DNA from: Octopus vulgaris
Lineage: Eukaryota
Assembly: GCA_951406725.2 (NCBI GenBank)
Contig: OX597825.1
Coordinates: 71,672,001-71,736,000 of the forward strand
DNA length: 64,000 bases
Direction of reading: 5' to 3'
This document shows positions 1 to 62,164 of this stretch, in pieces (the first letter of the stretch is position 1; each line of letters opens with the position of its first letter). Position numbers and translations under genes: made by a program. Below the pieces are notes generated by a model. That model saw only the letters and a list, made by a program, of their open reading frames with translations. It was not told the origin of the DNA and did not search any database.

Positions 1-1
1 A

Positions 2-1144
2 AATCAGTTCAAGACTTTAATATTGATGCCATTTCAAGGACAAATAGTGAGATTTTATCAGAATATTGAATTAACTATTGAAAAAGAAAGCGCGAACACT
101 ACCTCTAAAAACACCAATAAAAAACTGTTACCATCGCTGTGTCGAATAGAATTGTTGAATGAAGATGAGAAAACAACGCAATCAAAAGAAATTATTTTAG
201 AAGAAAGTAAAATATGCATATGTTTAGTCGGTTGTAAATGTATTTGTGATCAACCATATACATGCGAAATGATAGACAAGAGAACCACCACTGAATCTCC
301 TGTCAAAGACTTTCCTCATGAGAAACTCTGGGTTATTGTGTGCACAATTTTATTTCTACTTATGCTACTCAATTTACTAAAATTCTCTTTTGGCTTTTGC
401 TTCCCAATTCCCGTTGGCGAAGCAGGGCTATGTGTTTTTATAACAAGTAGCTTTCAGTGTGAATATCTCGAAAAAGATCTTCAGCAAAAAGCAGTAGAGT
501 ACGATGAAGACGGTTACCCAGTGCATCCGAAAACTAAAGAAAGAGTGCGTGCTTTGCAGTACAAGACAATGGGTGCTCTGAATTTATTATTCTTCTTTTA
601 CTTGCCATTTATTGTCTTTCATTGGTTTTTAGCACGAAACAAGATAAATAAAAAGAAAAAGGATATAACGTGGGACAAGTTAGAAACAACTGTTGAAATG
701 GTCAAAGAAGGCGATGACAACTTTTGTTTGCACCGTGCTTTGAAAAGAGCATCATGTCAAACAATATCATCAGATCAGTCCGAATTGCCAGACCCCGTCC
801 AAGAAGAAAGGAATTCTATATTAGAGGAATATGGTAGAAGAATATATAAAGGGAAATGTGGTGAGGAGTCAGTGAAACACCCGTGCGAAAAGTCTCCGAA
901 ATTATCTAAGGATTGCCAACGAAAGAGTAAATTGAAATGTGTGTTTAATAATTTTCGAAAAACAGAGAAAGAACCTAGTTCATGTGAAAGTTCAGACTGT
1001 CAGAAAAGTATTACGGATAATCTTTCAGCATGTATCATACCTGATATTACCCAAACTATTCGCGACGGTCACGAGAGTAGTTCATCTGAGCCTTCTTCAT
1101 GTTCATCATTCAAGAGAACTCCTAAAAAAGATAAATGTTCTTGA
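2..1144 (+). CDS. HAP2: 3' part of a HAP2/GCS1-like membrane protein (paralog 1; 5' end lies outside the window): domain III end, Cys-rich stem, two hydrophobic segments, short (~170 aa) tail
   Basis: Frame is open from base 2 (NQFKTLILMPFQGQ...) and aligns colinearly with the giant gene at ~18250-19350 (QFKTYTLTPFQGE; CRIELLNED vs CVIELWNED; CICLVGCKCICDQPYTC vs CLCLVGCKCSCDPPYPC; GFCFPIPVGEAGLCVFI; DGYPVHPKTKERVRAL; FFFYLPFI; SDQSELPD). Stop TGA 1142-1144. Confidence 0.75.
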   Translation, partial: NQFKTLILMPFQGQIVRFYQNIELTIEKESANTTSKNTNKKLLPSLCRIELLNEDEKTTQSKEIILEESKICICLVGCKCICDQPYTCEMIDKRTTTESPVKDFPHEKLWVIVCTILFLLMLLNLLKFSFGFCFPIPVGEAGLCVFITSSFQCEYLEKDLQQKAVEYDEDGYPVHPKTKERVRALQYKTMGALNLLFFFYLPFIVFHWFLARNKINKKKKDITWDKLETTVEMVKEGDDNFCLHRALKRASCQTISSDQSELPDPVQEERNSILEEYGRRIYKGKCGEESVKHPCEKSPKLSKDCQRKSKLKCVFNNFRKTEKEPSSCESSDCQKSITDNLSACIIPDITQTIRDGHESSSSEPSSCSSFKRTPKKDKCS

Positions 1145-16279: not shown

Positions 16280-16977
16280 TGTATGTACGTTTGAAAGCCA
16301 GGATTTACGCGTGCCATATCTGTAAAGTTTTATGGGGAATTCCTTTACTGAGCAAAAATACTGACAGATAGATCATCAATGATTTTAATCGTCGGATGAT
16401 ATACAATATATACAATTAAATGGATTTAACTATAAATAGATTGGATAATTTATTCATTGTCACACGCACACACACAGTCACGTGATTACGCGCACGCACA
16501 GTAGTCATAAATATTACCATGTGTAGGAGAACATAAATTAGTAAAATAAATGAGTTACAACTAATGACTCCTTTCCGGTATCTACCCCACCGATGTTGAA
16601 ATCAGTAATAATAATCCATGGTGTACATTTAATCAGAACCGATCTTTATCAACAGGGAGTCAAATTCAAAGTAACAGCGTTGAGAAGAAATAGGTTGTTT
16701 CAAAAAGAATGACGCTAAACAAACGCGATATTGCCAACTGTCTGACATTTTCATGAAGGATGGATATTAAAATGAACATAATAGATAAGAATCCCGCTTT
16801 TTGAAGATATATAAAATCAGTAAGCTTTTTGGTTTTCATTTCTCGTGTGCTTATTTGCATAATTCGGTATATATACAATTATATATTTCTTCATGTTGTA
16901 TTTTTCTATATTCCTCTGTCTCGCTCATCCAATCAAATATTGTTGACGATTTAAATTTCATTAATTATGGTGGAATT

Positions 16978-19900
16978 ATGAAGCTACAGACATTGCTAAG
17001 CACATATGTTTTAACCGTCCTTCTACAACATTCAGACGAGGAACAGCGAAGTTCAAATTCCCATCGGTATCTAACACTGCAACTTGTGGCAGATATACAT
17101 AATTACAACGACTGGAAATTAGGTCGTTTCTACACAATTGAAACCATGATTGATTTAGCCACAAACAAAATTTTTTTTTTCGAAGATTCAGTAACTCTGC
17201 GCGTTTACTTCAGCGATTTACTTGTTGGTTATCCCCTCCAATTTTTGCAATTTGTCAACAATCAACCATACGAAATGACTTACAACCAAACCTGTGATGG
17301 TGATTATAAAAGTGCCGGAACTTTCTGCCAACAGTCCGATGTAGGTGGTAAGTCGTACAAAACAAAAGGATACTGCTGTCCTGAAAGTCTCCAGATGCAT
17401 TGTATTCTATATGATCCTTTATGGTATTCTGTTAATACTCTCGGCAACCCTATAATTATTCAAAGTCTTATGGTAGAGGTCTTTAGAAAAGAAAAACACG
17501 CTGTAAAAGTAGTGCAAAGTGTCGCACAAAGCAATCGTTTTCTTGTCAACGGCAAAACTATCGAGAAGAGAGACGACGACCTTTATTTCACGGCCCGCGT
17601 TCTTCACCAGACCAACTTTAGTTGTAGACAGATAATTTGTTCAAATTTAAATTATTTATTGATACCCGTTGCAAACTCGGCCCTAAACGATAGAAATCCA
17701 CAGGCAAAAACGGACATAAAAGGTGTTAATGAGTACTTGCTTATTAAGAAAAAATATTTTGATTTAAAAGGAACATCTTGTGGAGCAATAGGAATTGTTG
17801 CCGGCGCCGTTTTGAAAAAGACCGACCGTTGTACAAAATCCTTTGTCAAAACTTGTTTCAAGAATCAACCATTGAGTTTCTGGCTTGAAGATAATTTGAA
17901 GAAATTGAACAATAATGTGGAGTCAGACAGATCAAAATATTTCCTATCGCATTTTACCAAGCCAATGGCTCCTTATACTGGAAAAGTTCCCGGTTGGGTA
18001 TCAAATAAATCGTTGTTATTTGTAGAGAATAAAAGGCATTCAGTTCGGGCACAGCTAGATATTATAATAAATCTTAACAAAGATCTTCTTCCTTCTGCAA
18101 TTCCATTATTAAGTGAAGGATCCATTGGAACCTTGTACGGCCACCCATTTTCAGATAGTGGCCACCAATATGAGATTGGTATAAATGTAATTAACATAGG
18201 ACTGATTACAGGAAACTTTAAAGTATTATTAAACTGTGAACCTGATAGACAGTTCAAGACTTATACGTTGACCCCATTTCAAGGAGAAACAGTGATATTT
18301 TTTCACAAGTTTGAATCTATTGAAGGAGGCATTATTCCTGGAAATACTGCCAAATTACAATTTCCAGTGCAGTGTGTAATAGAATTATGGAATGAAGATC
18401 AGAAAACAGTTAAGTCAAAATACCTTATTTTAAAAAGAAACAAACTCTGTTTATGTCTAGTTGGTTGTAAATGTAGTTGTGATCCACCATATCCGTGTGA
18501 AGTGAAAAAAGCTAAAATGATCCATTCTCCGGTCACGGCTATTTTCCGAGACGAAACATTAGTTATTTTCGGTATAGTTTTACTTTTTCTTATGATACTT
18601 AATATGTTAAAACTCATTTTTGGATTTTGTTTTCCGGTATCTATTGGCGAAGCAGGGCTGTGTGTTTTTATAAAAAGCAACTATCAGTGTAAATATTTCG
18701 ATAAAGATCTTCAATATAAAGCTGTAAAATATAATAAAGACGGTTACCCAATGCACCCCAAAACGAAGCGAAGAGTGCGTGCTCTGTCACAAAAGCAAAT
18801 GGGGATTATGAATTTCTTTTTTTTCTTTTATTTGCCATTTATTGGCATTCATTGGCTTTTAGTACGAAAATATATAAATAAAAAGAAATCAGATATAATG
18901 TGGAATAAATTAGAAACAAATATCCAACTGATTCACGAAGGTGACGAAGAGCGTAGTTTGCACGAATCTTTACGAAAAACAACATGTCATTATTCATCAT
19001 CAGATCACTCCGAATTGCCAGATCATATCGAAGAAAAACGGAGTGCTATATTAAATGAATATGGGAAAAGAGTATGCAGACCAAAACGTCGGGAAGATTC
19101 GATTTGCAAACCGTCGAAAAAATCACAGAAACAATCTTCAGAAGACTATCGATCAAAGACTAAATTTAAAAGCATGCTTGCTAATATCATGAGAACTGAC
19201 AAGGATTCTACGTCATCAGAAAGTCTAGAAAGTCAGAAAGGTAAGAGGGATAGATTATCAACATTTCCGTTGACTAAATCGACAAAACGACAGACGTATA
19301 GTACTTCTATAGGACACGAGACTAGTTCATCATCGTTTGAGCCTCCATGCCAACCAACCAGTGAATCTATGAAAGGTATAATTCAGTTTCCACTATCAGA
19401 ATTAATTCTCGATGTTCCTCAAGAGAAGCCACCAGAGGATACTGACAAAAGAAGGATTGAGCGTGGCAATGTAGACGCAACAACTCTCTCTGAAATTGAA
19501 ATGAGTGATATTTCCTGTAGAGAAGTTGGGAAAAAGCCGTCTAAGACCAGCATCTTTAAAAAAAAGCTGTCAAAACCAAAACGGAGCACACCACGTGTTT
19601 CCTGGACAGAGGCAGATTTTGAAGAACAAGTGTGCAGCAGCAAAGAAGGTAAACGGCGTTTTGGATTCAAAGGAAAATCACGGGTGTCATCGAGTAAAGA
19701 ATCCAGAGAAGTGCCAGTTGGACCGTTAGGTGAAGAGAGAGGTAGAGCATCACCAGCTAAGTTAGGTAGCTTTTCTGATGTTTCCGCTCAAGGAGTTGAG
19801 TGCATGCCTCTAGTAAAATCTATGAGTGCGTTTCCCGTACAGGAGAGGGAGTATGTTTCATCAAGACAACCATCGACTACAATGCCATTAACTTCGGAAA

Positions 19901-22900
19901 GGCCGTATACTTCAAGCAGGATGCATCCAAGTGAAATCACAAGAAGTGATATACTACAAAGATCAGTCATTTCACCGGATCAGAAAGAACAGCCAGCCAC
20001 ACTGAAAGGAGTCCCAGATGCTATGTTATACCCCCCAGCATCTCCCACATACACCAAAGAACCATCGGACGTTGCATTTGATCAACAGTTCGTTCGACGA
20101 TCTTCCGATGGCTTTCAGCATTTCTCCAGAGAACAACAACGAAGTCCGATATCTATGGTTATTTCCTTAGAACAACCGCCAATTGAACCAATTTTCGAGC
20201 AGAAGCAAACATCTTCGTTAGAACAAGAGCCGAGTCAATTGTCTAGAAAGGAAACGCAGCATATCTCCTTAGAACAATTGCGAAGTAGACAGCGTAGTGA
20301 AGATATGCAAGTTGTCTCCTTAGAAGAAGAGATGAGTCCACTATCTACCCAAGAGATTCAAGATATTTTCATGGGACAGCCGAGTAGAATTTCTGAGGAA
20401 ACGATGCAGCGCATTACTGGAGTTCAACAGTCGACTTCCACGGCTTCAGCACCTTGTTTCGAGTTTGAAAAATCGCCATTACGTCAACAACTTGACGTGT
20501 TACCCACACAAGAACGAAAGTACAAATCGATGGTAGAGCCAGAGACTCAATTTCCTGTAAAAGACACTCTGTACAAACTGCACTCAGATGGGAAATTATC
20601 TGAAAAAGACAAAGTAACCACTTCAATAGCAGCGCAACAGAGAAAACAATCGAAAAAGGGACACTATCGAGTATCCTTTTTTGATACACCTATATTTGCA
20701 CCTAAAAAAGTAGATGTTAGTTTTGTACCACCAGATGACATAACAACACCGACTTCACCAATGTACGATCAAAAACCAATAAGTATGAGAAAGAGATCTT
20801 CTTCAGCTGATCATCGAAGTCAAATATCCAGAAAAGATACAGTGGAGAGTTCCTTTGAACAACGGCCAAGTGAAACTTACATAGGGGATGTCAAAGAAAC
20901 TCTACCAACATATGATTCAAGAGGTGTATTTGAAGAACTGCATATTCCATCACCTGAAAGGCAGGCTTCAATGCTGTATGATACAGTGAGAGACACGCGG
21001 CATAATATATCGGAAGTGTATAGCCTGTTAACAGACCAAGTAAGTCAACCATCTGTTGAAAGAGAGGGTGCTATCGGGTCGATAACAGAACAGCGAAGTC
21101 GGATATCTGAAACAATGAGTGTTCCGCGTTCCATAACGGACCAGCGGCGTGAAGTATATGAAAGAGAGAGTATTCCCAGTACAATAGCTGATCAACGAAG
21201 TCGATTATCAGAAAGAGAGGGCACTATCAGATCGATATCAGATGAGCGAAGTCAGATACCGGTAACAATGAGTATTCCCAGTTCAATAATGGACCGTCGG
21301 ACCGAAATATCTGAAAGAGAAAGTATTCCCAGTCGATTATCCGAAAGAGAGGGTACTATCAGATCGATATCAGATGAACGAAGTCAGATACCGGTAACAA
21401 CGAGTATTCCATCTGCTGAAAAGCTTCACACTGTTTCATTCCAAGAACAGCCAGATCAAACGTCAACAGTTACCGAAATTTCTCCTCCGGTCACAGAACA
21501 ATATAGCAGTATATCCCCACAAGAAAGGTCACATCTGGAAATGAGAGACAGAGATCAACAATCAGACATAGAGACAAAACCATACATGCCAGTAACAGAT
21601 CTGTTAGATCTAAGAGAAAAGAAAAAGAGTTTAGACGATTTATTAGCAAAGTATGGCATTGAAACACGCGGTCAGATGATTGACAGTATAAGAGGAAGCT
21701 TATCAAGAGAAAGTAGGCATCTGCTAAGTGAAGAAAGAAAGAGTAAATCACTGTTGGATATACAGACTCCGTATTACACAGATACTGAGAGACAAATGTC
21801 TGAGAGAGAATTGCTTGGTTTAGAGAGAGAACGGTCAATTTCTTTAACTGGGCAAAAGAGTAAACACAGTTCGATACCAGAAGATCTAGATAAGTTGTCC
21901 ACAAGAGAAAGTGCACATAGTCTAGTGGCAGACAGACTGAGTGAAGTATACAAAAAGGATAGCATTCTCAGTTCAATAACAGATCAACGAAGTCCATTAT
22001 CACGAAGAGAGAGTGTTCTTAGTTTGCTAGATCAGCGGAGTCGCATTCCCAGTTCAGTACTAGATCAACGAAGCCTGTTGTCAGGACGAGAGAGTATTGC
22101 CATTTCAAAGCCATCTGAGCAGAGTCTGTTATCAGAAAAAGAGAGTATTCTCAGTCCGGTAGCTGACCAGAGGAGTCAGATATATGGAAGAGAGAGTACT
22201 CCTAGTTCAATAGCTGACCAACAAGTACAATTGTCAGAAAAAGAGAGTAGTCTCAGTTCAGTAGCCGACCAGCAGAGTCAAATTACTGTACGAGAGAGAA
22301 TTCGAAGTTCAATCGCAGACCAGCGAAGTCAAATATCTGGGCGAGAGAGTATTCCTAGTTCAGCAATAGGAGAACAAAGTGAAATATCGCCAAGAGCAAG
22401 CACTCCTAGTTCTATATCAGAGCAACCAATCTTATCACCAGAAAGAGAGAGTATAATTAGTTCGGTTCCATATCAGCGAAGTCAGATGCATGAGAGTGAA
22501 AGTTATACTAGCTCTGCAACAGACCAGCTGAGTCGAATACCACCAAGCGAAAGTGTTCCGAGTTCAACAATAAAACAACAAAGTCAGATTTCAGGAAGGG
22601 AAAGTATTCACAGTGCAGTACCATCCCATCTAAGCCATAGTTTCCTTAGTGAGAGTTCTCGCAGTTCTGTTGCAGATCAGCGGAGTCAGATATCTGGAAA
22701 ACAGAGAACGCCTACATCAATAATTGACCAAAGTAGTCAGATATCTGGAAGGGAAAGTACTCCGAGTTCCATAATTGACCAACGGAGTCAAATATCCGGA
22801 AGACAGAGAACTCCTACATCTATAATTGACCAACGAAGCAAGATATCTGGAAAAGAGAGTACTCATAGTACAATAACTGAAAAAGAGAGTCTTATATATG

Positions 22901-25900
22901 GAAGAGAAAGTACACCCAGTGTTGTTACAGAGCAGCAGAGCAAGATATCAGGAAAAGAAAGTATCGCTGGTTCAATGGTAGACCAACGAAGTCAGACATC
23001 ATCAAGAGAGACTACTCCTAGATATATGCCGGATAAACGTAGTCAAATATCTGGAAAAGAGAGTACTCCTAGTACAATAACTGACAAAATAAGGAGTAGT
23101 CCTAGCTCATCAAGGAGTGCTTCTCGCTCAGCAACTGACCAGCGGAGTCAGAGATCCGTGAGAGATGGTACTAGTACGCCTAGTTCAATTAGTGACAAGC
23201 GGAGTCAGGTATCTAGCAGAAAGAGTACTCCTAGTTCGGTAAGTGAACAACGGAAAAAAATATTGGGAAGAAAGAGTACTCCTAGTTCGATAACAGACAA
23301 ACGAAGTCCAATTTCTAGGAGTGACAGTACTACAACTACGAAATCAGACCGGCGGAGTCGAATAAGTGTAAAAAAGAGAACACCAAGCCCAAAGGTTGAC
23401 CAAAAGAGTCAGATGTCACAAAGGGAGAGCAAACCAAGTTCAGCGATAGCACAAAGAAGTCAAATATCTGGAAGTGAAAGTACAGTTAGTTCAACACATG
23501 ACCGACGGAGTCAGATTTCAGAAAAGGAAGGTATTACAGAACAACGAAGTGAGATATATCAAAGAGAGAGTATTCCTAGTACAATACAAGAGCAACGAAG
23601 TCGACTATCAGAAAGAGAGAGTACTATCAAATCGATATCAGATCAGCGAAGTCAGATATCGGGAACAAAGAGTATTCCCAGTTCAATAACGGACCGTCGG
23701 ACCGAAATGTCTGAAAGAGAGGGTATTCCTAGTACTATAGCAGATCAACGAAGTCGATTATACGAAAGAGAGAGTATTGTCAAATCGATACCAGATCAGC
23801 AAAGTCAGATATCAGGAACAATGAGTATTCCCAGTATAATAACGGAACCATGGAGTCAAATATCTGAAAGTATTCCCAGTACAAAAGCAGATCAAGGAAG
23901 TCGATTATCAGAAAGAGAGAACACTATCAGCTCGATATCTGATGAGCGGAGTCAGATATCAGGAACTATGAGTATCCCCCCCAGTTCAGTAACGGAGCGA
24001 CTAACTGAAGTATCTGGAAGACGGAGTACTCCCAGTACAATAGCAGATCAGCGAAGTCGATTAACAGAAAGAGAGAGTATTGTCAGATCGATATCAGATG
24101 CGCGAAGTCGGATATCGGGAAAGATGAGTATCTCCAGTTCAATAACGGATCGGCGGAGTCAAATATCTGGAAGAGAGAGTATTCCCAGTACAAAAACAGA
24201 TCAAAGAAGTCGATCATCAAAAAGAGAGAGTACTGTCAGATCGATATCAGATCAGCGAAGTCAGATATCGGGAACGATGAGTATCCCGCCCAGTTCAGTA
24301 ACGGAGCGACTAAGTGAAGTGTCTGAAAGACGGAGTACTCCCAGTACAATAGCAGATCAGCGAAGTCGATTATCAGAAAGAGAGAGCACTATCAGATCGA
24401 TATCAGATGAGCGAAGTCAGATATCGGGAACGATGAGTACCCCCGCCAGTTCAGTAACAGAGCGACTAAGTGAAGTTTCTGAAAGACGGAGTACTCCCAG
24501 TACAATAGCAGACCAGCGAAGTCGATTATCCGAAAGAGAGAGTACTCTCAGATCGATATCAGATGAGCGAAGTCAGATATCGGGAACGATGAGTATCCCC
24601 CCAAGTTCGGTCACGGACCGTCGGAGTGAAGTATCTGAAAGACGGAGTACTCCCAGTACAATAGCAGATCAACGAAGTCGATTATCAGAAAGGGAGAGTA
24701 CTATCAGATCGATAACAGATCAGCGAAGTCAGATATCGGGAACGATGAGTATCCCCCCCAGTTCAGTAACGGAGCGACTAAGTGAAGTATCTGAAAGACG
24801 GAGTACCCCCAGTACAATAGCAGATCAGCGAAGTCGATTATCCGAAAGAGAGAGCACTATCAGATCGATATCTGATGAGCGAAGTCAGATATCAGGAACG
24901 ATGAGTATCCCCAGTTCAATAACAGATCGGCGGAGTCAAATATCTGAAAGAGAGAGTATTCCCAGTACAAAAGTAGATGAGCGAAGTCGATTATCAGAAA
25001 GAGAGAGTACTATCAGATCGATAACAGATCAGCGAAGTCAGATATCAGGAACGATGAGTATCCCCGCCAGTTCAGTAACGGAGCAACTAAGTGAAGTTTC
25101 TGAAAGACGGAGTACTCCCAGTACAATAGCAGATCAGCGAAGTCGATTATCAGAAAGAGAGAGTACTCTCAGATCGATATATGATGAGCGAAGTCAGATA
25201 TCAGGAACGATGAGTATCCCCCCCCCAGTTCAGTAACGGAGCGACTAAGTGAAGTATCTGAAAGACGGAGTACTCCCAGTACAATAGCAGATCAGCGAAG
25301 TCGATTATCCGAAAGAGAGAGTACTCTCAGATCGATATATGATGAGCGAAGTCAGATATCAGGAACGATGAGTATCCCCCCCAGTTCAGTAACGGAGCGA
25401 CTAAGTGAAGTATCTGAAAGGCGGAGTACTCCCAGTACAATAGCAGATCAGCGAAGTCGATTATCCGAAAGAGAGAGCACTATCAGATCGATATCTGATG
25501 AGCGGAGTCAGATATCGGGAACGATGAGTATCCCCGTCAGTTCAGTAACGGAGCGACTAAGTGAAGTATCCGAAAGAGAGAGTACTCCCAGTACAATATC
25601 AGACGAGCAACGTCGATCATCAGAAAGAGAGAGTACTATAAGATCGATATCAGACGAACGAAGTCAGATTTCTGGAACAACGAGTATTCCCAGTTCAATA
25701 AGAGACTGGCCAAGCCAAGTAACTCAAAGAAAGAGTGTCTTAAGTTGGATGCCAGACCAACGAAGTCGATTGCCAGAGAGGGAGAGCATGGTTAGGTCGA
25801 CATACGATCAGCGAAGTGAGATATCTGAAAAAACGTATTTTCCAATTTCAACAACAGACTGGCGGAGTGAAATATCTGAAAGACATAGAATTTTTAGTAT

Positions 25901-28900
25901 GACACCAGAACAGCGTAGTCGATTACAAGAAACGGAGAGCATTGTAAGGTCCATATACGATCAGCGAAGTCAGATAAGTGGAATAATGAGTATTCCAAGT
26001 TCAATAACAGACCGGCTGAGTGAAGTATCTGAAAGAGAGAGTATTTCCAGTAAAATCCCAGACGAACGGAGTCGATTATCAGAGACAGAGAGTACTATCA
26101 GATCGATATCAGATCTGCGAAGTCAGATATCAGATACAATGAGTATACCCAGCTCAATAATGGACCGTCGGAGTGAAGTATATACAAGGGAGAGCATTCC
26201 CAGTACAATAGAAACCCAGAGAAGTCTATCATCAGAAAGAGAGAGTTCTTTCAGATCGACACCAGACCAGCGAAGTGAAATACCTGGAAGAATGAGTATT
26301 CCCAGTTCAATAACAGACCGGCGGAGTGAAGTATCCGAAAGAGAGAGTATTCCAAGCTCATTAGCAGATCAACGAAGTCGACTATCAGAAAGAGAAAGTA
26401 CTATCAGATCAATGTCAGATGAGCGAAGTCAGATATCAGGAACGATGAGTATCCCTAGTTCAATAACAGATCGGCGAAGTCAAATATCTGAAAGAGAGAG
26501 TATTCCCAGTACAATAGCTGATCAACTAAGTCGATTATCCGAAAGAGAGAGTACTATTAGATCGATATCAGATCAGCGAAGTCAGATATCGGGTACAATG
26601 AGTATTCCTAGCTCAATAACAGACCGTCGTAGTGAAGAATCTGAAAGAGAAAGTATTCAGAGTAAATTAGCAGATCAACGAAGTCGATTATCCGAAAGAG
26701 AGAGTACTATCAGATCGATATCTGACGAGCGAACTAAGATATCGGGAACGATGAGTATTCCCAGTTCAATAACAGACCGCAGGAGTGAAGTATCTGAAAG
26801 AGAAAGTATTCCCAGTACAATAGCTGATCAACTAAGTCGATTATCCGAAAGAGAGAGTACTGTCAGATCGATATCAGATCAGCGAAGTCAGATATCGGGG
26901 ACGATGAGTATTCCCAGTTCACTAACAGACCGTCGGACCGAAATATCTGAAAGAGAAAGTATTCCCAGTACAATTATGGATCAACGAAGTCGATTATCCG
27001 AAAGAGAGAGTACTGTCAGATCGATATCAGATCAGCGAAGTCAGATATCAGGAATAATGAGTATTCCCAGCTCAATAACCGACCGTCGGACCGAAATATC
27101 TGAAAGAGAAAGTATTCCCAGTACTATAGCAGATCAACGAAGTCGATTATCCGAAAGAGAGAGTACTGTCAGATCGATATCAGATGGACGAAGTCAGATA
27201 TCTGGAACAATGAGTATTCCCAGCTCAATAACGGACCGTCGGACCGAAATATCTGAAAGAGAAAGTATTCCCAGTACTATAGCAGATCAACGAAGTCGAT
27301 TATCCGAAAGAGAGAGTACTGTCAGATCGATATCAGATCAGCGAAGTCAGATATCGGGAACAATGAGTATTCCCATTTCAGTAACAGACCGCAAGAGTGA
27401 AGTAACTGAAAGAGAGAGTATTCCCAGCACTATAGCAGATCAACGAAGTCGATTATCCGAAAGAGAGAGTACTGTCAGATCGATATCAGATGGACGAAGT
27501 CAGATATCGGGAACAATGAGTATTCCCAGTTCAATAACGGACCGTCGCACCGAAATATCTGAAAGAGAAAGTATTCCCAGTACAATGACGGATCAACGAA
27601 GTCGATTATCCGAAAGAGAGAGTACTGTCAGATCGATATCAGATCAGCGAAGTCAGATATCGGGAACAATGAGTATTCCAAGTTCAATAACGGACCGCAG
27701 GAGTGAAGTATCTGAAAGAGAAAGTATTCCGAGTACAATAGCAGATCAACGAAGTCGATTATCCGAAAGAGAGAGTACTATCAGATCGATATCCGATCAG
27801 CGAAGTCAGATATCGGGAACGATGAGTATTCCCAGCTCAATAACGGACCGTCGGACCGAAATATCTGAAAGAGAAAGTATTCCCAGTACTATAGCAGATC
27901 AACGAAGTCGATTATCCGAAAGAGAGAGTACTATCAGACCAACATCAGATGGACGAAGTCAGATATCGGGGATGATAAGTATTCCCAGTTCAATAACAGA
28001 CCGCAGGAGTGAAGTATCTGAAAGAGAAAGTATTCCGAGTACAATTGCAGATCAACGAAGTCGATTATCCGAAAGAGAGAGTACAGTCAGATCGATATCA
28101 GATGAGCAAATTCAGATATCGGGAACAATGAGTATTCCCAGTTCAATAACGGACCGACGGAGTGAAGTATCTGAAAGAGAGAGTATTCCCAGTACAATGA
28201 CTGATCAACGAAGTCGATTATCTGAAAGAGAGAGTAGGATAAGATCGATATCAGATGGGCGAAGTCAGATATCGGGAACGATGAGTATTCCCAGTTCAAT
28301 AACAGACCGACGGAGTGAAATATTTGAAAGGGAGAGTTATCCAAGTACAGTAGCAGATCAACGCAGTCGATTATCCGAAAGAGAGAGTACAGTCAGATCG
28401 ATATCAGATGATCGAAGTCAGATATCGGGAACAATGAGTATTCCCAGTTCAATAACGTACCGTCGGAGTGAAGTATCTGAAAGAGAGAGTATTCCCAGTA
28501 CAATGACAGATCAACGAAGTCGATTATCAGAAAGAGAGAGTAGGATAAGATCGATATCAGATGGACGAAGTCAAATATCCAAGACAATGAGTATTCCCAG
28601 TTCAATAACAGACCGACGGAGTGAAATATTTGAAAGTGAGAGTTATCCAAGTACAATAGCAGATCAACGAAGTCGATTATCCGAAAGAGAAAGTACTATC
28701 AGATCGATATCAGATGAGCGAAGTAAGATATCGGGAACAATGAGTATTCCCAGTTCAGTAACAGACCGCAGGAGTGAAGTAACTGAAAGAGAAAGTATTC
28801 CGAGTACAATTGCAGATCAACGAAGTCGATTATCCGAGAGGGAGAGTACTATCAGATCGATATCAGATCAGCCAAGTCAGATATCGGGGACGATGAGTAT

Positions 28901-31900
28901 TCCCAGTTCAATAACAGACCGCAGGAGTGAAGTATCTGAAAGAGAAAGTATTCCGAGTACAATAGCAGATCAACTAAGTCGATTATCCGAAAGAGAGAGT
29001 ACTATCAGATCGATATCAGATCAGCGAAGTCAGATATCGGAAACAATGAGTATTCCCAGTTCTGTAACAGACCGCAGGAGTGAAGTATCTGAAAGAGAGA
29101 GTATTCCCAGTACAATAGCAGATCAACGGAGTCGATTATCTGAAAGAGAGAGTACTATCAGATCGATATCAGATCAGCGAAGTCAGATATCGGGGACGAT
29201 GAGTATTCCCAGTTCAATAACGGACCGTCGAAGTGAAATATCTGAAAGAGAATGTATTCCGAGTACAATAGCTGATCAACTAAGTCGATTATCCGAAAGA
29301 GAGAGCACTATCAGATCGATATCAGATGGACGAAGTCAGATATCGGAAACAATGAGTATTCCCAGTTCTGTAACAGACCGCAGGAGTGAAGTATCTGAAA
29401 GAGAGAGTATTCCCAGTACAATAGCAGATCAACGAAGTCGATTATCTGAAAGAGAGAGTACTATCAGATCGATATCAGAGGGGCGAAGTCAGATATCGGG
29501 GACGATGAGTATTCCCCGTTCAATAACAGACCGCAGGAGTGAAGTATCTGAAAGGGAGAGTACTCCGAGTACAATATCAGACGAACGAAGTCGATTATCA
29601 GAAAGAGAGAGTACTATCAGATCGGCATCAGTTGAAGAAAGTAAGACTTCTGAACAAATAAGTCTCCCCAGTTCAAGAACTGACCGAGGGAGTGAAATAT
29701 CTGAAAGGGAGTCTGTTCCCAGTACAATTATTCACCAAGGAAGTCGGTTATCAGAAAGCGAGAGCACTTTTAGATCTAAATCAGATCTGCAAAGTCAGAT
29801 ATCTGCAGCAGAGAGTATTCCGAGTTCAATAAGAAGCGGGCCGGGTGTGGTGTCTGAAAGAGCGGGTATAGTAAGGTTTTTACCAGACCAACGAAGGCGA
29901 TTATCAGAAAGAGAAACTCCTGTCAGGTCGATAGCAGATCAACGAAGTCAGATATTTGCAAGGTTGCATATTCCCAGTTCAGTATCAGAATGGCAAAGTG
30001 AAGCATCTGAAAGAGAAATTAGTCCCAGGGCAATATCAGACGAACGAAGTCGATTATCAGAAAGAGAGAGTACAATCAGTTCGATACCAGATGAACGCAG
30101 TCAAATAGCTGAAACAGCGAGTGTCCCTAGTTCAGTAATGGAGGTGAGGAGTGAAGTATATGAAAGAGCTCGTATTGTAAGTACGATACCTGACCAACAA
30201 AGTCGATTATCAGAAAGAGAGAGTATTATTAGATCTATATACGATCAACGAAGTCGGATATCTAGAACAATGAGTACCCCCAGTTCAATAAGTGATCGAC
30301 TCAGTGAAATATTTGAAAGGGAGAGTATTCCCAGTAAAATAGAAGACCAACGAAGTCGATTATCAGAAGGGGAAGGTACAATCAGATCCATATCAGGTCC
30401 ACGAAGTCAGATATCGGGAACATTAAGTATTCCTAGTTCAATAATAGACCGTCGGAGTGCGGTATCTGAAAGAGAGAGTATGACCAGAACAATGACAGAG
30501 CCAACAAGTCGATTATCAGGAACCGAAAGTACTATCACATCAATTTCAGGTCCACGCAGTCAGATATCGGGAACAATGAGTATTCCCAGTTCAATAATAG
30601 ACCGGCGAAGTGCAGTATCTGAAAGAAAGAGTACTCCCAGTACAATGACAGAGCAACGAAGTCAATTAACAGGAAGCGAAAGCACTATCACATCCATTTC
30701 AGGACCACGAAGTCAGATATCGGGAACAATGAGTATTCCCAGTTCAATGACGGACCGTCGGACCGAAATGTCTGAAAGAGAAAGTATTCCCAGTTCAATG
30801 ACGGATCAACGAAGTCGATTATCCGAAAGAGAGAGTACTGTCAGATCGATATCAGATCAGCGAAGTCAGATATCGGGAACAATGAGTATTCCCAGTTCAA
30901 TAACAGACCGGCGGACCGAAATATCAGAAAGAGAAAGTATTCCCAGTTCAATGACGGATCAACGAAGTCGATTATCCGAAAGAGAGAGTACTATCAGATC
31001 GATATCAGATGGTCGAAGTCAGATATCGGGAACAATGAGTATTCCCAGTTCAATAACAGACCGGCGGACCGAAATATCAGAAAGAGAAAGTATTCCTAGT
31101 ACAATGACGGATCAACGAAGTCGATTATCCGAAAGAGAGAGTACTATCAGATCGATATCAGATGGTCGAAGTCAGATATCGGGAACAATGAGTATTCCCA
31201 GTTCAATAACAGACCGGCGGACCGAAATATCAGAAAGAGAAAGTATTCCTAGTACAATGACGGATCAACGAAGTCGATTATCCGAAAGAGTACTATCAGA
31301 TCGATATCAGATGGTCGAAGTCAGATATCGGGAACAATGAGTATTCCCAGTTCAATAACAGACCGTCGCACCGAAATATCAGAAAGAGAAAGTATTCCCA
31401 GTACAATGACGGATCAACGAAGTCGATTATCCGAAAGAGAGAGTACTATCAGATCGATATCAGATGGTCGAAGTCAGATATCGGGAACAATGAGTATTCC
31501 CAGTTCAATAACAGACCGTCGCACCGAAATATCAGAAAGAGAAAGTATTCCCAGTTCAATGACGGATCAACGAAGTCGATTATCCGAAAGAGAAAGTACT
31601 ATCAGATCGATATCAGATGGTCGAAGTCAGATTACGGGAACAATGAGTATTCCCAGTTCAATAACAGACCGCAGGAGTGAAGTATCTGAAAGAGAAAGTA
31701 TTCCCAGTTCAATGACGGATCAACGAAGTCGATTATCCGAAAGAGAGAGTACTATCAGATCGATATCAGATGGTCGAAGTCAGATATCGGGAACAATGAG
31801 TATTCCCATTTCAGTAACAGACCGCAAGAGTGAAGTAACTGAAAGAGAGAGTATTCCCAGCACTATAGCAGATCAACGAAGTCGATTATCCGAAAGAGAA

Positions 31901-34900
31901 AGTACTATCAGATCGATATCAGATCAGCGAAGTCAGATATCGGGAACAATGAGTATTCCCAGCTCAATAACGGACCGTCGGACCGAAATGTCTGTAAGAG
32001 AAAGTATTCCTAGTACAATGACGGATCAACGAAGTCGATTATCCGAAAGAGAGAGTACTATCAGATCGATATCAGATCAGCGAAGTCAGATATCGGGAAC
32101 AATGAGTATTCCTAGTTCAATGACGGACCGTCGGACCGAAATGTCTGTAAGAGAAAGTATTCCTAGTACAATGACGGATCAACGAAGTCGATTATCCGAA
32201 AGAGAGAGTACTATCAGATCGATATCAGATCAGCGAAGTCAGATATCTGGAACAATGAGTATTCCCAGTTCAATAACGGACCGTCGCACCGAAATATCTG
32301 AAAGAGAAAGTATTCCCAGTACAATGACGGATCAACGAAGTCGATTATCCGAAAGAGAGAGTACTATCAGATCGATATCAGATGGTCGAAGTCAGATATC
32401 TGGAACCTTGAGTATTCCCAGTTCAATAACGGACCGTCGCACCGAAATATCTGAAAGAGAAAGTATTCCCAGTACAATGACGGATCAACGAAGTCGATTA
32501 TCCGAAAGAGAGTACTATCAGATCGATATCAGATGGTCGGAGTCAGATATCTGGAACACTGAGTATTCCCAGTTCAATAACGGACCGCAGGAGTGAAGTA
32601 TCTGAAAGAGAAAGTATTCCAAGTACAATGAAGGATCAACGAAGTCGATTATCCGAAAGAGAGAGTACTATCAGATCGATATCAGATCAGCGAAGTCAGA
32701 TATCGGGAACGATGAGTATTCCCAGCTCAATAACAGACCGTCGCACCGAAATATCTGAAAGAGAAAGTATTCCCAGTACTATAGCAGATCAACGAAGTCG
32801 ATTATCCGAAAGAGATAGTACTATCAGATCGATATCAGATGGACGAAGTCAGATATCGGGAACAATGAGCATTCCCAGTTCAATAACGGACCGTCGCACC
32901 GAAATATCTGAAAGAGAAAGTATTCCCAGTACAATGACGGATCAACGAAGTCGATTATCCGAAAGAGAGAGTACTATCAGATCGATATCAGATCAGCGAA
33001 GTCAGATATCGGGAACAATGAGTATCCCCAGTTCAATAAAGGATCGTCTGAGTGAAGTATCTGAAAGAAAAAGTATTCCCAGTACAATGATGGATCAACG
33101 AAGTCGATTATCCGAAAGAGAGAGTATTGTCAGATCGATATCTGATGCGCAAAGTCAGTTATCTGGAACACCGAGTATTCCCAGTTCAATAACGGACCGC
33201 AGGAGTGAAGTATCTGAAAGAGAGAGAATCCCCAGTACAATGACGGATCAACGAAGTCGATTATCCGAAAGAGAGAGTACTATCAGATCGATATCAGATG
33301 GTCGGAGTCAGATATCTGGAACAATGAGTATTCCCAGTTCAATAACGGACCGTCGCACCGAAATATCTGAAAGAGAAAGTATTCCTAGTACAATGACGTA
33401 TCCACGAAGTCGATTATCCGAAAGAGAGAGTACTGTCAGATCGATATCAGAGGGGCGAAGTCAGATAACGGAGACGATGAGTATTCCCAGCTCAATAACA
33501 GACCGCAGGAGTGAAGTATCTGAAAGAGAAAGTATCCCCAGTACAATGACGGATCAACGAAGTCGATTATCCGAAAGAGAGAGTACTGTCAGATCGATAG
33601 CAGATCAGCGAAGTCAGATATCTGAAACAATGAGTATTCCCAGTTCAATAACGGATCGTCGGAGTGAAGTATCTGAAAGAGAGAGTATCCCCAGTACAAT
33701 GACGGATCAACGAAGTCGGTTATCCGAAAGAGAGAGTACTATCAGATCGATATCAGATGGGCGAAGTCAGATATCTGGAAGAATGAGTATTCCCAGTTCA
33801 ATAACGGACCGTCGGAGTGAAGTATCTGAAAGAGAGAGTATTCCCAGTACTATAGCAGATCAACGAAGTCGATTATCCGAAAGAGATAGTACTATCAGAT
33901 CGATATCAGATGATCGAAGTTATACATCGGGAACAATGAGTACTCCGAGTTCAATGACAGACCGACGGAGTGAAGTATGGATGCCAGACCATAGAAGTAG
34001 ATTATCAGAAAGAGAGAGCACTGTCAGTTCGATATCAGATGGGCGAAGTGAAATGTCCAGAACAAGGAGTGTTCGAAGTTCAACATCCAACCGTCGGAGT
34101 GATGTAACTGAAAGAGAGTCTGTCCCCAGTACATTCACAGAACAACGAAGTCGGTTATCGGAAAGGGAGAGTACTATCGGATTAACATCAGATGATCGGA
34201 GTCAGATATCCGGTTCAATGAGTATTTCCACTTCGGAAGCAGACCGGCGGAGTGATGTAACTGATAAAGAGAGTATTCCCAGTATAATAGCTGCTCATCG
34301 AAGCCGTTTATCAGAAAAAGAGGTTACTCAATCTCCTGTATCTGACATTCAGAGTCCGATATCAGAGAGAGAAAATCCACAGTTTGACACCGGAAAAGTG
34401 GAGTCAAATATCAGAAAGAGAGAGAATGGAAGTCTCTACGGCAGACCAACGAAGCGCAACACCTAGCAAACGCACTATTCGCAGTTCAATAGCCGATATT
34501 CGTAGTCAAATATCCCGAAGTATGAGAAGTCTCATATCTCCGTTAGATAAGCGGAGTCGCATATCAGAAAAGGAGAGCATTCCGACTTCAATAGCCCATC
34601 AGCTAAGTCAATTATCTGGTAAGGAGAACATTCTTAGTTCTCCGCCAGTCGAAGTGAGTCATGTATCTGAAAGAGAGAGTATTCCTAGTTTAATGAGAGA
34701 CCAACGTAGTCAGATATCTGGACGAGAGAGTATTCTCAGTTCAATGGCTGACCAACGAAGTATATCATCTGGAAGGGAGAGAATACATAGTTCAAAAGAA
34801 GAACAGCCTAGTTCAATAACAAGAATACAGAGTATCTCTAGGGAAATGGGAGATCAACACAGTCAAATTACTGGACAAGATAGCCGTGTGTCTCTAAGGC

Positions 34901-37900
34901 ACAGTACGTTATCGAGAAGCGACAGCAATCTGAGTTCTGTACAAGATCAAGAAAGCCATATATCTGAACCACCATCTATTCGAAGTTCGCTCTCAGAGGA
35001 ATTGAGTCAAATATCTGGAAAACATAGTAGAGTTAGTACAGTACCAGAACAATGGAGTAAACCATCGCGAACTGAGAGCTTACGTATTTCTGTACCAGAC
35101 GAGCAGATAAGTGGAAGAGAAAGTATTCAAAGTCCACTGTCTCTCCAAAGGAGCGAAATATTTGAAAGAGAAAGAATGCATAGTAATGTATTAAGTCAAA
35201 GGAGTCGGGATGATGAAAGTGCATCATTTAAAACTTTTATACCTGAACAGGGAAGTCGAATAACAGAGAGAGAAAGTATTGTTCGTTCCATACCAGACCA
35301 ACGCAGCCGACTTTATGAAACAGTGAGTACTGAGAGACCTTTCGCTGAAGAACGTCAGTTATCTAAAAGCGATATTAGTGTTCAGTCTGGTCCAGACGAA
35401 CGGAGTTATACGTCTAGAAGAGAGATTATTCGTAGTTTAACAACAGAACCGAGCATAATATCAGGAAGAGAAAGTATTCCTGGTTCAATGATAGACAGAC
35501 GTAGTCAGATATCTGGAAAGGAGAGTACCCTCAGTTCAATGACAGACCAGCGAAGTCTGACATCTGGAAGAGAGAGTACTCCCAGTTCTATGACAGACCG
35601 ACGAAGTCAGATATCTGGAAGAGAAAGTATTCCCAGTACGATGAGAGACCGACGAAGTCAGATATCTGGAAGGGAGAGTATTCCCAGTTCCATGAGAGAC
35701 GAACGAAGTCAGATATCTGGAAGAGAGAGTATTCCCAGTTCAATGAGAGACGAACGAAGTCAGATATCTGGAAGAGAGAGTATTCCCAGTTCAATGAGAG
35801 ACGAACGAAGTCAGATATCTGAAAGAGAGAGTATTCCCAGTTCAATGAGAGACCAACGAAGTCAGATATCTGGAAGAGAGAGTATTCCCAGTTCAATGAG
35901 AGACGAACGAAGTCAGATATCTGGAAGAGAGAGTATTCCCAGTTCAATGACAGACCGACGAAGTCAGATATCTGGAAGAGAGAGTACTCCCAGTTCAATG
36001 AGAGACGAACGAAGTCAGATATCTGGAAGAGAGAGTACTCGTAGTTCAATGAGAGACGAACGAAGTCAGATATCTGGAAGAGAGAGTACTCCCAGTTCAA
36101 TGAGAGACGAACGAAGTCAGATATCTGGAAGAGAGAGTATTCCCAGTTCAATGAGAGACGAACGAAGTCATATATCTGGAAGAGAGAGTACACGTAGTTC
36201 AATGAGAGACGAACGAAGTCAGATATCTGGAAGAGAGAGTACTCCTAGTTCAATGAGAGACGAACGAAGTCAGATATCTGGAAGAGAGAGTATTCCCAGT
36301 TCAATGAGAGACGAACGAAGTCAGATATCTGGAAGAGAGAGTACTCGTAGTTCAATGAGAGACGAACGAAGTCAGATATCTGGAAGAGAGAGTATTCCCA
36401 GTTCAATGAGAGACGAACGAAGTCAGATATCTGGAAGAGAGAGCACTCGTAGTTCAATGAGAGACGAACGAAGTCATATATCTGGAAGAGAGAGTATTCC
36501 CAGTTCAATGAGAGACGAACGAAGTCAGATATCTGGAAGAGAGAGTACTCGTAGTTCAATGAGAGACGAACGAAGTCAGATATCTGGAAGAGAGAGTATT
36601 CCCAGTTCAATGAGAGACGAACGAAGTCAGATATCTGGAAGAGAGTATTCCCAGTTCAATGAGAGACGAACGAAGTCAGATATCTGGAAGAGAGAGTATT
36701 CCCAGTTCAATGAGAGACGAACGAAGTCAGATATCTGGAAGAGAGAGTATTCCCAGTTCAATGAGAGACGAACGAAGTCAGATATCTGGAAGAGAGAGTA
36801 TTCCCAGTTCAATGAGAGACGAACGAAGTCAGATATCTGGAAGAGAGAGTACTCGTAGTTCAATGAGAGACGAACGAAGTCAGATATCTGGAAGAGAAAG
36901 TATTCCTAGTTCAATGAGAGACCAACGAAGTCAGATATCTGGAAGAGAGAGTATTCCTAGTTCAATGAGAGACGAACGAAGTCAGATATCTGGAAGAGAG
37001 AGTATTCCTAGTTCAATGAGAGACCAACGAAGTCAGATATCTGGGAGAGAGAGTATTCCCAGTTCAGAGCAGCACAGTCACGTATCAGAAAGAGATAGTA
37101 TTTTTAGTTCAAGACCAGAACAACGGACACAAACATCTAGAAGTGAGAGTAGTCTTAGTTCAATAGTAGATCAACCGAGTGAGGCATCCGTATCTGAGTG
37201 TATGCTTCATTCTACTCCCGATGAACAGCTTCAGATATCTAGAGGAGAAAGTGCTCGTACTTCAATTCCCAACCAGCGCAGTCAGATATCAGATAGATGG
37301 AATACATTTAGTTCTATGCAAGACCAGGAGAATCAGGTCTTTCATAGAGAGAGTATTCTTGGTTCGGTACCAGAACAGTGGAGTCAGGTATTTCTCAGAA
37401 GAGAGAGTATTCAAAGATCAGTACCAAACCAGCGGAGTCAGATATCTGAAAGTGAGAATATTCGCCAAACTATAGCACCTCATCTGACATATATATCTGC
37501 AAGAGAGAGTACTCCCAGTTTAATAGTTGAGCTAGGGAGTCATATATCTGATAGAGCGAGTATTCACAGTTCAACGTCTGACCAGCGGAGCCAGATTACT
37601 GGAAAGGAAAGTTTTGTCAGTTCATTACCAGATCAAGGAAGTCAAATATCTGAGAAAGAGCGTATTTTTACTCCAGTAACAGACCAACGGAGACAGGTGT
37701 CTGAAAGAGAGAGTAGTTTTAGTTCAGTTCCAGGTCACCGCAGTCAAGTATTCCAAGGTGAGAGTGTTCCAAGTTCAGTAGCTGACCAAATGAGCCAGAA
37801 ATCTGGAAGTGAGATAGTTTACACTCCTGTATCAAATGAATGGAGACAATTATCTAGAAATGAAAGCATCGTAGGTTCAACACCATTTCAACGAAGTCAG

Positions 37901-39598
37901 ATATCTGGAAGAGAGAGTATACCTGGTTCTATGATGGACCAGCGGAGTCAGATATCTGGAAAAGTGAGTACTCCCACTTCAATAAGAGACCAACGAAGTC
38001 AGATATCTGGAAGAGAGAGTATTCCTGGTTCAGTAACAGACCAGCGGAGTCAGATATTCGAGCGAGAGGGTACCTCCAGTTCAATGACAGACCAACGAAG
38101 TCAGATATCTGGAAGAGAGAGTACTCCCAGTTCAATGAGAGACCAACGAAGTCAGATATCTGGAAGAGTGAGTACACCCAGCTCAACGACAGACCAACGA
38201 AGTCATTTATCTGGAAGGGAGAGTATTCCTGGTTCAATGATGGAGCAGCGAAGCCAGATATCTGGAAGAGAGGGTACCCCCAGTTCAATGAGAGACGAAC
38301 GAAGTCAGATATCTGGAAGAGAAAGTACTCCTGGTACAATGACGGGTCAGCAGAGTGAGATATCTGGGAGAGAGGGTAGCCCCAGTTCAATGAGAGAGCA
38401 ACAAAGTCAGATATCCAGTCGAGAAAATATTCCCAGTTCAGCGACATCAAGATCCACCTCACATAGACCATTATCAGAAATATCAAGTGGCAGATCTATT
38501 AGGCAGGACACTAACACTTCTGTTGGTGAAGTCCTTGATGAGCTTAGTAGAAGTTCTCGCACTCAATCATCATTGGCGGATTTTCCAGCTGGAATTCAAC
38601 CCAGAGATTCGTATGTAGTCTCATCTCAACAATCCAGGTATGAAAGTGATGTTGCTTTAACTGAGACATCGAATGAATCGTCTAGATCTCAAGCGACTAC
38701 GGTAATTAGGAATGAGTCTGATTCTGCACGTGCTCTTTCAAAATCAAGCAGTAGTCATTCTTCGCAAACATCAAGGAGTTCCTCTTCAGATAAAATTAGC
38801 ACCAACTCAAATGCTTTAAGAAGTACTCTTGACAAAAGTCAAAATAATAATATAAGTGTTAAAAAATATGTTGGGAAAACTGCAAAAAAATTTGACAAAC
38901 CTGGTACCTCCCAAAAGAAAAAAAGTACTAACTTAAATAGCAAGAATTTTCTTGGTAACAGAAAGAAAAATCAAATTGATTCAAGTCAAAATGCAGACCA
39001 AGACAGATCTGATGACCTAATGGATAAGTCAGAAAATAATAGTTCATATGCTGCAGATGGCTTCCCAATGAAACAGGCCCAGAAGAAAGACAGGACACAA
39101 AAGTCCCAAGGAAGGGAAAATATTTGTGAAGGAGAGTATGTTTGTGAAGAAAAAAATGAATCCGGTCTTGACAACAATTCTAGCAATAATAAAGCAGTTG
39201 CATCTACATCTAGGTTTTGCAAAGATACTATAAAAGTATGTAGTGAATCAGCTCAAGGAATGCAGTCTTCAACAACAGACAAAGAATATGTTAACAAACT
39301 GGTCAAATCTGAGAAAGTCTATTATAATTTTCCAGAATCCTCTCGTAACCTCATAAACTCTGGAGATAAATTCAGTCTTTATGGAGCCCTTCGAAAAGAT
39401 GGGAATCGTTATGTTTTCCGCTTAATGCAATTCCTTGAACAGACCTATGAAAACATTGATGGAATAGCACGTCCATTGCAAGGAAGGAAAATATTAATTT
39501 CAAACTCTTACGTGTTTAACAGATATCTCGATTGCTCTGGAGTTCTTTCATTCATTACAAAGAAGCCCAAGTATCCATGTCTGAATAATCCAGATTAA
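16978..39598 (+). CDS. HAP2: Giant single-exon HAP2/GCS1-like membrane protein (~7,540 aa after repairing 5 frameshifts) with a ~17 kb Ser/Arg-rich tandem-repeat tail
   Basis: ATG 16978 opens a signal-peptide-like MKLQTLLSTYVLTVLLQHS. HAP2 motifs occur in order: YPLQFLQFVNNQPYE, C-D...TFC...G...KGYCC, HCILYDPLWYSV..LG.P, YLLIP, YLLIKKKYFDLKGTSCGAIGI...C.......CFKNQPLSFWLED, Ig-like V-INIG...G.F...C, CLCLVGCKCSC, then hydrophobic segments. ORFs 16801-25236, 25368-31340, 31337-32596, 32628-34466, 34384-36858 and 36659-39598 join by +2, -4, -2, -2, -2 indels in C or AG runs. Confidence 0.85.
17770..17892 (+). other. HAP2-GCS1 signature segment (ij-loop region)
   Basis: GTSCGAIGIVAGAVLKKTDRCTKSFVKTCFKNQPLSFWLED vs the remembered family pattern G.ECNKIGV...AF..Q...C......CL.NQL......D. 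Confidence 0.75.
18559..18864 (+). other. Membrane-anchoring region: long hydrophobic segment (18559-18672) and second hydrophobic segment (18799-18864) followed by a basic RKYINKKK patch
   Basis: LVIFGIVLLFLMILNMLKLIFGFCFPVSIGEAGLCVFI and MGIMNFFFFFYLPFIGIHWLLV; both conserved in paralog 1. Confidence 0.75.
21040..38440 (+). repeat. Coding tandem array based on a 51-bp (17-aa) monomer with 153/156-bp higher-order units
   Basis: Monomer e.g. RSQISGRESIPSSMRDE; trimer MSIPSSITDRRTEISER-ESIPSTIADQRSRLSER-ESTIRSISDQRSQISGT; near-perfect monomer block ~35560-37060. Confidence 0.95.
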
Positions 39599-42772: not shown

Positions 42773-43134
42773 CAGTGCTACTCAAAGTGGTGGTCTACAA
42801 ACCAGTGCTGGTCCGTGAGCCATCAGCTGCTGGTATGCGGCAAGTTTCCAGAAAAGAAAGAAACGATAGCACAATTTCAGTAATTTCGCCTTATGCACTG
42901 CAGTAAACAATTGATCAGCTTATGTAATATTGTATTATTTGTTTACAAAATAAATGTAAGATTTTATAATATTCAGGAGTGGCTGTGTGGTAAGTAGCTT
43001 GCTAACCAACCACATGGTTCCAGGTTCAGTCCCACTGCGTGGCATCTTGGGCAAGTGTCTTCTGCTATAGCCCCGGGCCGACCAATGCCTTGTGAGTGGA
43101 TTTGGTAGACGGAAACTGAAAGAAGCCTGTCGTA

Positions 43135-43191
<57 letters not shown>

Positions 43192-45715: not shown

Positions 45716-45809
45716 GTGTATAAGGATGAAAAGGAACACACGAGTTGATATATATGAAAAAAAACAAGTCAAGATAGAAAATGCTAAAATAATTTTATGA
45801 AGAACATTT

Positions 45810-47247: not shown

Positions 47248-47449
47248 ACTCTTTTACTTGTTTCAGTCATTTGACTGCGGCCTTTCTGGAGCACCGCCTT
47301 TAGTCGAGCAAATCGACCCCGGGACTTATTCTTTGTAAGCCCAGTACTTATTCTATCGGTCTCTTTTGCCGAACCGCTAAGTGACGGGGATGTAAACACA
47401 CCAGCATCGGTTGTCAAGCAATGCTAGGGGGACAAACACAGACACACAA

Positions 47450-47519
<70 letters not shown>

Positions 47520-54969: not shown

Positions 54970-55002
<33 letters not shown>

Positions 55003-62156: not shown

Positions 62157-62164
62157 GAGAGAGG

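Follow-up and report, generated by a model that had tools for sequence, protein, structure and literature searches.

The stretch of DNA described here (the window; 64,000 nucleotides) was taken from the forward strand of contig OX597825.1 (here C12) of the Octopus vulgaris assembly GCA_951406725.2, at positions 71,672,001 to 71,736,000, in a genome of 2.8 Gb in 227 contigs. It carries the 3′ part of one gene and the whole of its tandem paralog, the subject of this report, which extends over 22.6 kb as six overlapping frames between positions 16978 and 39598. The gene is an intact, intronless mollusc descendant of HAP2/GCS1, in which the fusion loop between strands c and d (the cd loop) is replaced by a link of six residues.

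The first open frame runs from 16789 to 25236 (+), with the ATG at 16978 as its likely start, and holds no intron. Residues 56-484 match the HAP2-GCS1 family of Pfam (PF10699) with 87.4 bits against a curated cut-off of 27.4 (E 1.1e-24); PF10699 was the only family that matched the open reading frame at E up to 1, and the EFF-AFF family (PF14884) was not among the matches. With regard to a type I layout, the membrane anchor at residues 529-547 is clear, a second hydrophobic segment (residues 610-628) is present, and the signal peptide was judged by eye. By descent and fold the protein belongs with HAP2 and is not a member of EFF/AFF; it also departs from canonical loop-inserting HAP2 in four tested features and should not be filed as one. 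The coordinates of the features are collected in Table 1.

Positions 17368-17430 translate to GYCCPESLQMHCILYDPLWYS, in which the CC and HC motifs are separated by six residues (17380-17397). The initial annotation had read from the letters this short link, the loss of the third Cys, the Arg and the hydrophobic loop, an altered ij-loop motif, a retained Glu (17272-17274) and the lack of an N-terminal Cys pair, and translation and alignment with relatives bear it out on all of these. In the alignment with Chlamydomonas HAP2 the match breaks off after chain residue 147 and picks up again at 186, a gap over which the query advances only from residue 136 to 138. A total of 82 relatives were matched, and the 51 with both flanking motifs were counted (31 fragments or motif-less sequences were left out). 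The cd loop has at least 24 residues, with an Arg and at least two Cys, in 47 of these 51, some of the very long counts being insect insertions or mis-anchored; the other four are three tick proteins with 10 residues, two Cys and no Arg, and P0002 (a Logan protein) with six residues. That short loops might be routine in animal HAP2, an objection that the initial annotation had itself raised, is ruled out by this count.

The third Cys, the mid-loop Cys and the loop Arg are all absent from the octopus protein. Fedry et al. (2017; PMC5332557) described three Cys before the HAP2 loop, one inside it and one after it. Judging from their joint presence elsewhere, the third Cys and the inner loop Cys presumably form one disulfide; both were lost together with the loop. 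No Cys occurs before residue 106, hence the N-terminal Cys pair is missing as well; eight core cysteines of domain II are kept.

The six-residue junction is crossed without a gap, and with well over 31 letters on both sides, by contigs of all four runs (from four studies, none flagged as a possible source). These contigs, together with the short-loop paralog and P0002, rule out an assembly error or a hidden exon at this point; an intron or hidden exon is also excluded because the frame is open and only 18 bases are available. RNA editing that would restore the Arg left no sign in the run contigs, though contigs drop rare variants. Two other proteins, P0025 and P0051 (one of them from the dragonfly Ladona), have long loops without the usual RGG motif before HC, and these loops may also be altered.

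The tandem paralog, about 18 kb upstream and 56% identical, has a link of the same length (GYCC-PESVQI-RC), as has P0002, which is 35% identical (GFCC-PHVLEA-HC). In a tree of 29 rows chosen from 45, computed with the loop columns excluded, these three six-residue proteins group at 100/100 support on a stem of 1.0 changes per column, and the trio nests with Solemya, Pecten and P0034 (98/97), whose loops have 26-37 residues. Nested as it is among loop-bearing mollusc HAP2, the gene is therefore molluscan and the loss derived; the loss predates both the tandem duplication and the split from P0002. The public record of the paralog (P0003) begins only at an internal Met, so that 236 residues are missing from its front end, the signal peptide and the loop region among them, a truncation that may be why the paralog's loop loss went unnoticed. 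Word-based protein searches added nothing new, returning zero matches, or only P0002 itself, or only P0003.

A retroposed mRNA that skipped the loop was considered as the origin of the gene. HAP2 genes are reported often to have introns between strands b, c and d (PMC6089408). The annotated isoforms of Pecten, Lineus and Ornithodoros differ away from the loop. The octopus HAP2-derived gene is intronless, yet so are two DCST-like genes of the same genome.

In ticks of three genera a HAP2-like protein has a loop of 10 residues without Arg, and its ij loop is degenerate (Ornithodoros XP_064484784.1, Rhipicephalus KAL1487266.1 and Ixodes CAN8032015.1; short-loop ids P0024/P0085, P0055 and P0056, long-loop id P0031). 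They resemble the octopus protein in the short loop without Arg, the degenerate ij loop and the long branch, and differ from it in having 10 residues and in keeping both loop Cys and the N-terminal Cys pair. Ornithodoros turicata holds both the short-loop form (P0024/P0085) and a 25-residue, Arg-bearing HAP2 (P0031). Among the arthropods, the tick proteins form a group of their own with a long stem, and a single origin of the mollusc and tick short loops was rejected by the approximately unbiased (AU) test (p-AU 0.001). The group was defined after the first tree had been seen, which weakens the test somewhat; long branches would, if anything, pull the tick and mollusc groups together. From these sequences, the loop loss appears to have arisen separately in ticks and in this mollusc clade.

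The HAP2 loop Arg is reported to pair with a Glu of strand b (PMC5332557) and to sit in a cage formed by the ij loop, with F376 and Q379 among the residues involved (PMC6327110). This Glu is kept in the octopus protein (Glu99, codon GAA) and in its paralog and is Asn in P0002; Glu99 is left without its loop Arg partner. All 57 other aligned proteins carry the ij-loop Phe, where both octopus paralogs have Val. The Gln, found in 50 of the 57, is replaced in the six-residue proteins, by Lys in two of them and by Asn in the third. The tick ij loop lacks even the invariant Gly. As far as the alignments tell, the structure that supports the Arg has decayed in both lineages that lost the Arg, and this coupled decay supports, from evolution, the structural claim that the ij motif holds the loop Arg.

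An AlphaFold model was computed from a 65-row alignment (mean predicted local distance difference test score (pLDDT) 80.6). It renders the cd link as a four-residue turn (PESL) joining strands c and d (model residues 111-115 and 120-125) at a pLDDT of about 90, in a tight hairpin with Pro-Glu-Ser at its tip. The best structural match was Cyanidioschyzon HAP2 (7s0k; Foldseek E 2e-22; VIA Z 19.4, root-mean-square deviation (rmsd) 8.9, 401 aligned residues), and the top eight Foldseek rows and top six VIA rows were all HAP2, above Fsx1, hantavirus Gc and EFF-1. Model residues 362-468 align to domain 3 of Plasmodium HAP2 (Z 11.5, rmsd 2.0, 93 aligned). The predicted protein thus retains the class II three-domain fold and is closest to the solved HAP2 structures.

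Another possibility is that the protein still acts as a one-sided fusogen, with a substitute apolar surface built from the bc and ij loops in the manner of the three small loops of Trypanosoma HAP2. HAP2 tips are reported to vary greatly, T. cruzi using three short loops (PMC6089408), and the octopus ij loop (GAIGIVAGAVL) is more apolar than the usual motif. However, the apolar run is not common to its relatives (ATTGISIGSVT in the paralog, GAVGVTEEAFL in P0002), the bc loops have no aromatic residue in common, and T. cruzi keeps the Glu-Arg bridge (PMC6089408). We regard a substitute surface as distinctly unlikely.

Between the two paralogs the ratio of nonsynonymous to synonymous substitution rates (dN/dS) is 0.55 (bootstrap 0.45-0.69) at a dS of 0.58 over 608 codons; it is 0.59 in the ectodomain and 0.39 in the membrane region, which is the most constrained. 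Neither paralog ectodomain has a stop or a frame break. The codon comparison indicates a gene that is maintained under moderate purifying selection and is evolving fast. Recognition proteins often evolve fast. A third copy, found by DNA search on contig C9 (L034, G000:C9:52604151-52604286, -), consists of the membrane-anchor region only and is interrupted by a stop and a frame break; contigs of three other runs contain a piece that matches it, and a 26-base pattern for this copy gave no exact match. The decay of this copy, the high dN/dS and five frame breaks in the tail would suit a relic that is degenerating under relaxed selection after HAP2 became redundant. Such a relic is very improbable: both ectodomain frames have stayed open over a dS of 0.58, the dN/dS interval excludes 1, the reading frame is preserved by both of the length differences (3 and 12 bases at 19500) that full-length contigs from other runs show, bivalve HAP2 can still be matched at about 41% identity by the C-terminal domain, 20 kb further on, and the tail breaks are located at error-prone runs.

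The two paralogs also have in common a 5′ block of about 590 bases that is 94.7% identical (98-100% over about 16700-17000), as against 60-84% further in. Sequencing depth is about doubled over this block in the independent runs X4 and X6. The block likely reflects gene conversion and co-expression.

The Ser/Arg-rich repeat tail of the protein (19000-39598) has about 6,900 residues if the frames join. The five frame breaks coincide with a C9 run or with AG runs, or adjoin the latter, a placement that suggests read errors, in which case the product would have about 7,500 residues; were the breaks instead genuine slippage, it would stop at about 2,750. Most distal is a C-terminal domain that is common to other mollusc and nemertean HAP2s and about 41% identical to the ends of the Solemya, Pecten and P0002 proteins. 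It had no Pfam match, folded alone at a pLDDT of 41, and its match to P0075 was insignificant. The paralog has a short tail without this domain.

Table 1. Features of the octopus HAP2-derived locus, with positions in the 64,000-nucleotide window
Feature	Position	Strand	Remarks
Tandem paralog, 3′ part (locus L002)	1..1144	+	797 residues; begins about 1.25 kb before the window; short tail
Near-identical 5′ block (upstream region, leader, signal peptide)	16500..17088	+	paralog copy at L037:8270-8858
First open frame	16978..25236	+	likely signal peptide, HAP2 ectodomain, membrane anchor, tail start
Likely signal peptide, about residues 1-19	16978..17034	+	judged by eye
Glu99, HAP2 salt-bridge Glu	17272..17274	+	codon GAA
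Strands c and d, GYCC and HCxxxDPLWY motifs kept	17368..17430	+	
Six-residue cd link PESLQM replacing the HAP2 fusion loop	17380..17397	+	alignment, model, gapless contigs in 4/4 runs
ij loop C268-C293	17779..17856	+	three Cys and Gly kept; Phe to Val278, Gln to Lys281
Immunoglobulin-like domain III, approximate limits	18112..18441	+	structural alignment of model
Transmembrane helix, residues 529-547	18562..18618	+	hydropathy peak 2.67
Second hydrophobic segment, residues 610-628	18805..18861	+	conserved among other animal HAP2s
Ser/Arg/Ile/Glu-rich coding tandem repeat, 153-base unit	23561..33978	+	about 68 copies; Tandem Repeats Finder (TRF)
Five further overlapping frames continuing the tail	25188..39598	+	five frame breaks
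Coding tandem repeat, 51-base unit	35458..37066	+	about 32 copies; TRF
C-terminal domain, about 110 residues, marking the 3′ end of the gene	39260..39595	+	single copy in the genome

Downstream of the gene, reverse transcriptase fragments of the long interspersed nuclear element (LINE) type were found at 44244-45794 (-) and 62112-62845 (-), with a match to RVT_1 (E 1e-32) at 44844-45794. A short interspersed repeat with an internal CA/TA microsatellite occurs at about 42935-43245, 47385-47689, 54916-55236, 59929-60336 and 61706-61990.

Searches of the genome with Pfam, self, Solemya, P0002 and C-terminal-domain queries returned only the two paralogs and no loop-bearing HAP2; the result is a lower bound, as two of the searches used a stricter first pass and a gene with small exons could escape. 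A 107-residue query from the loop stretch of Solemya gave two chance matches and missed the octopus gene itself, and is hence uninformative. An EFF-AFF family search of the genome gave no match, though its controls gave none either. Two intronless genes with a DC-STAMP domain were found, of 767 and 695 residues and with Cys-rich C-termini (L039:331-2634 and L040:1204-3291). It has been proposed in a preprint of 2026 (PMC13192892) that DCST machinery came to supplement HAP2 or to take its place. The initial annotation had suggested that the protein might be a partner or inhibitor of a canonical HAP2. A role as regulator, inhibitor or heterotrimer subunit of a loop-bearing HAP2 is conceivable in ticks, where both loop forms of Ornithodoros turicata show that the arrangement exists, but in the octopus genome, in which no loop-bearing HAP2 was found (save for a small-exon gene that the searches could miss), the suggestion is unsupported and we give it hardly any weight.

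As to function, the initial annotation had proposed a possibly non-fusogenic fusexin. In Chlamydomonas, R185A, R185Q and a TRA deletion are reported to abolish both fusion and liposome binding (PMC5332557), and in Arabidopsis deletion of helix alphaF or the R163A mutation abolishes fertilisation (PMC6089408). In the light of these mutants, the standard one-sided, loop-inserting route is very likely closed to the octopus protein, and to this extent the proposal holds; it does not extend to non-fusogenicity in general, since Fsx1 and EFF-1 fuse two-sidedly. Tentatively, and with a confidence that falls somewhat short of probable, we read the protein as a gamete-surface docking or partner-binding protein that is unable to fuse membranes alone, its expression in gametes being assumed from family membership. 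By analogy with the HAP2 mutants, a protein without Arg bridge and apolar loop would not insert into the target bilayer. The retained rod-shaped ectodomain might then be displayed on sperm and bind the egg or a partner protein, the long Ser/Arg tail might anchor or cluster the protein inside the cell, and other machinery, for which the DCST1/2-like pair of this genome is the most plausible candidate, might merge the membranes.

Several observations weigh against a docking role. The three-domain scaffold, the stem cysteines and the anchor are all kept, as a fusogen needs. The paralogs are the sole HAP2 genes found in the genome and may therefore have retained the ancestral task. Relaxed selection could equally account for their fast evolution, and P0002 retains the ij-loop Phe. 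The DC-STAMP genes were assigned as DCST1/2-like by size and domain only, and animals with a full-loop HAP2 may also have DC-STAMP genes. Finally, Fsx1 is reported to fuse two-sidedly with a six-residue loop (PMC9259645), EFF-1 to do so with an acidic tip (PMC8784728), and Tetrahymena HAP2 R164A still to fuse in crosses with wild type (PMC8777248).

These precedents point to the chief alternative, a two-sided or receptor-anchored fusogen like EFF-1/AFF-1 or Fsx1, in which copies on both membranes or a bound partner would replace the lipid-inserting loop, trimer fold-back would still drive merger, and the paralogs could act together. Besides Fsx1, bilateral with its short loop (PMC9259645), and the Tetrahymena mutant with its wild-type partners (PMC8777248), the electronegative tip of bilateral EFF-1 and the bilateral action of Arabidopsis HAP2 in heterologous cells (PMC8784728) are consistent with it, as are the full class II fold with all remaining domain II cysteines, the recovery of only these HAP2 genes from the genome, and the near-identical 5′ block, which suggests co-expression of the paralogs. 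On the other side, the Fsx1 loop is described as uncharged, protruding and needed for fusion, whereas the octopus turn has four residues including a Glu; expression on both gametes, or a partner, would putatively be required; and the long stem branch and the lost N-terminal Cys pair suggest a wider change. We therefore consider a two-sided fusogen possible, though on the unlikely side. A bolder and somewhat less likely proposal joins several of these threads: a loop-less fusexin would have evolved independently in cephalopod-like molluscs and in ticks, and in the mollusc it would be the sole remaining HAP2, still fusing gametes two-sidedly or receptor-anchored through co-expressed paralogs, one of them with a tail of nearly 7,000 residues. 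If true, this would be a natural HAP2 that fuses without lipid insertion.

The locus offers a natural test of whether and how HAP2 fuses animal gametes: either a fusogen is being retired into another job, or a HAP2 fuses without its supposedly essential loop and salt bridge. Mollusc relatives with the loop (Solemya, Pecten) and without it are available for comparison, and ticks offer a second, independent case, a single genome, that of Ornithodoros, holding both forms. Published work stresses a variable loop but a conserved salt bridge, so that a complete loss, twice among animals and in a gene that is maintained, is new. No literature on a loop-less HAP2 of cephalopods or ticks was found in a search to which supplements and subscription journals were not open, and the accessible text of PMC8706100 gives no precedent for a loop-less class II paralog.

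Among known systems, the nearest named relatives are the HAP2s of bivalves and nemerteans (Solemya velum KAL5009314.1, Pecten maximus XP_033735139.1, Lineus and Tubulanus). They have in common with the octopus protein the ectodomain core, the Cys-rich stem, the anchor, the second hydrophobic segment and the C-terminal domain, and differ from it in loops of 32-37 residues with an Arg and two Cys, in the N-terminal Cys pair and in the ij Phe and Gln; their tails have a few hundred residues, compared with about 6,900 in the octopus if the frames join. The characterised HAP2s (Chlamydomonas, Arabidopsis, Cyanidioschyzon and Trypanosoma) share with it the Pfam match and the class II three-domain fold, whereas the octopus protein has neither the Glu-Arg bridge nor the cd loop that inserts into the membrane, both of which HAP2 needs in Chlamydomonas and Arabidopsis. 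Fsx1 and EFF-1/AFF-1 resemble it in fold class (Foldseek E 2e-12 and 4e-10), in a short or polar tip and in having no HAP2 Arg bridge. Fsx1 and EFF-1 are, however, far more distant than HAP2 and never had the HAP2 bridge, whereas the octopus protein lost it.

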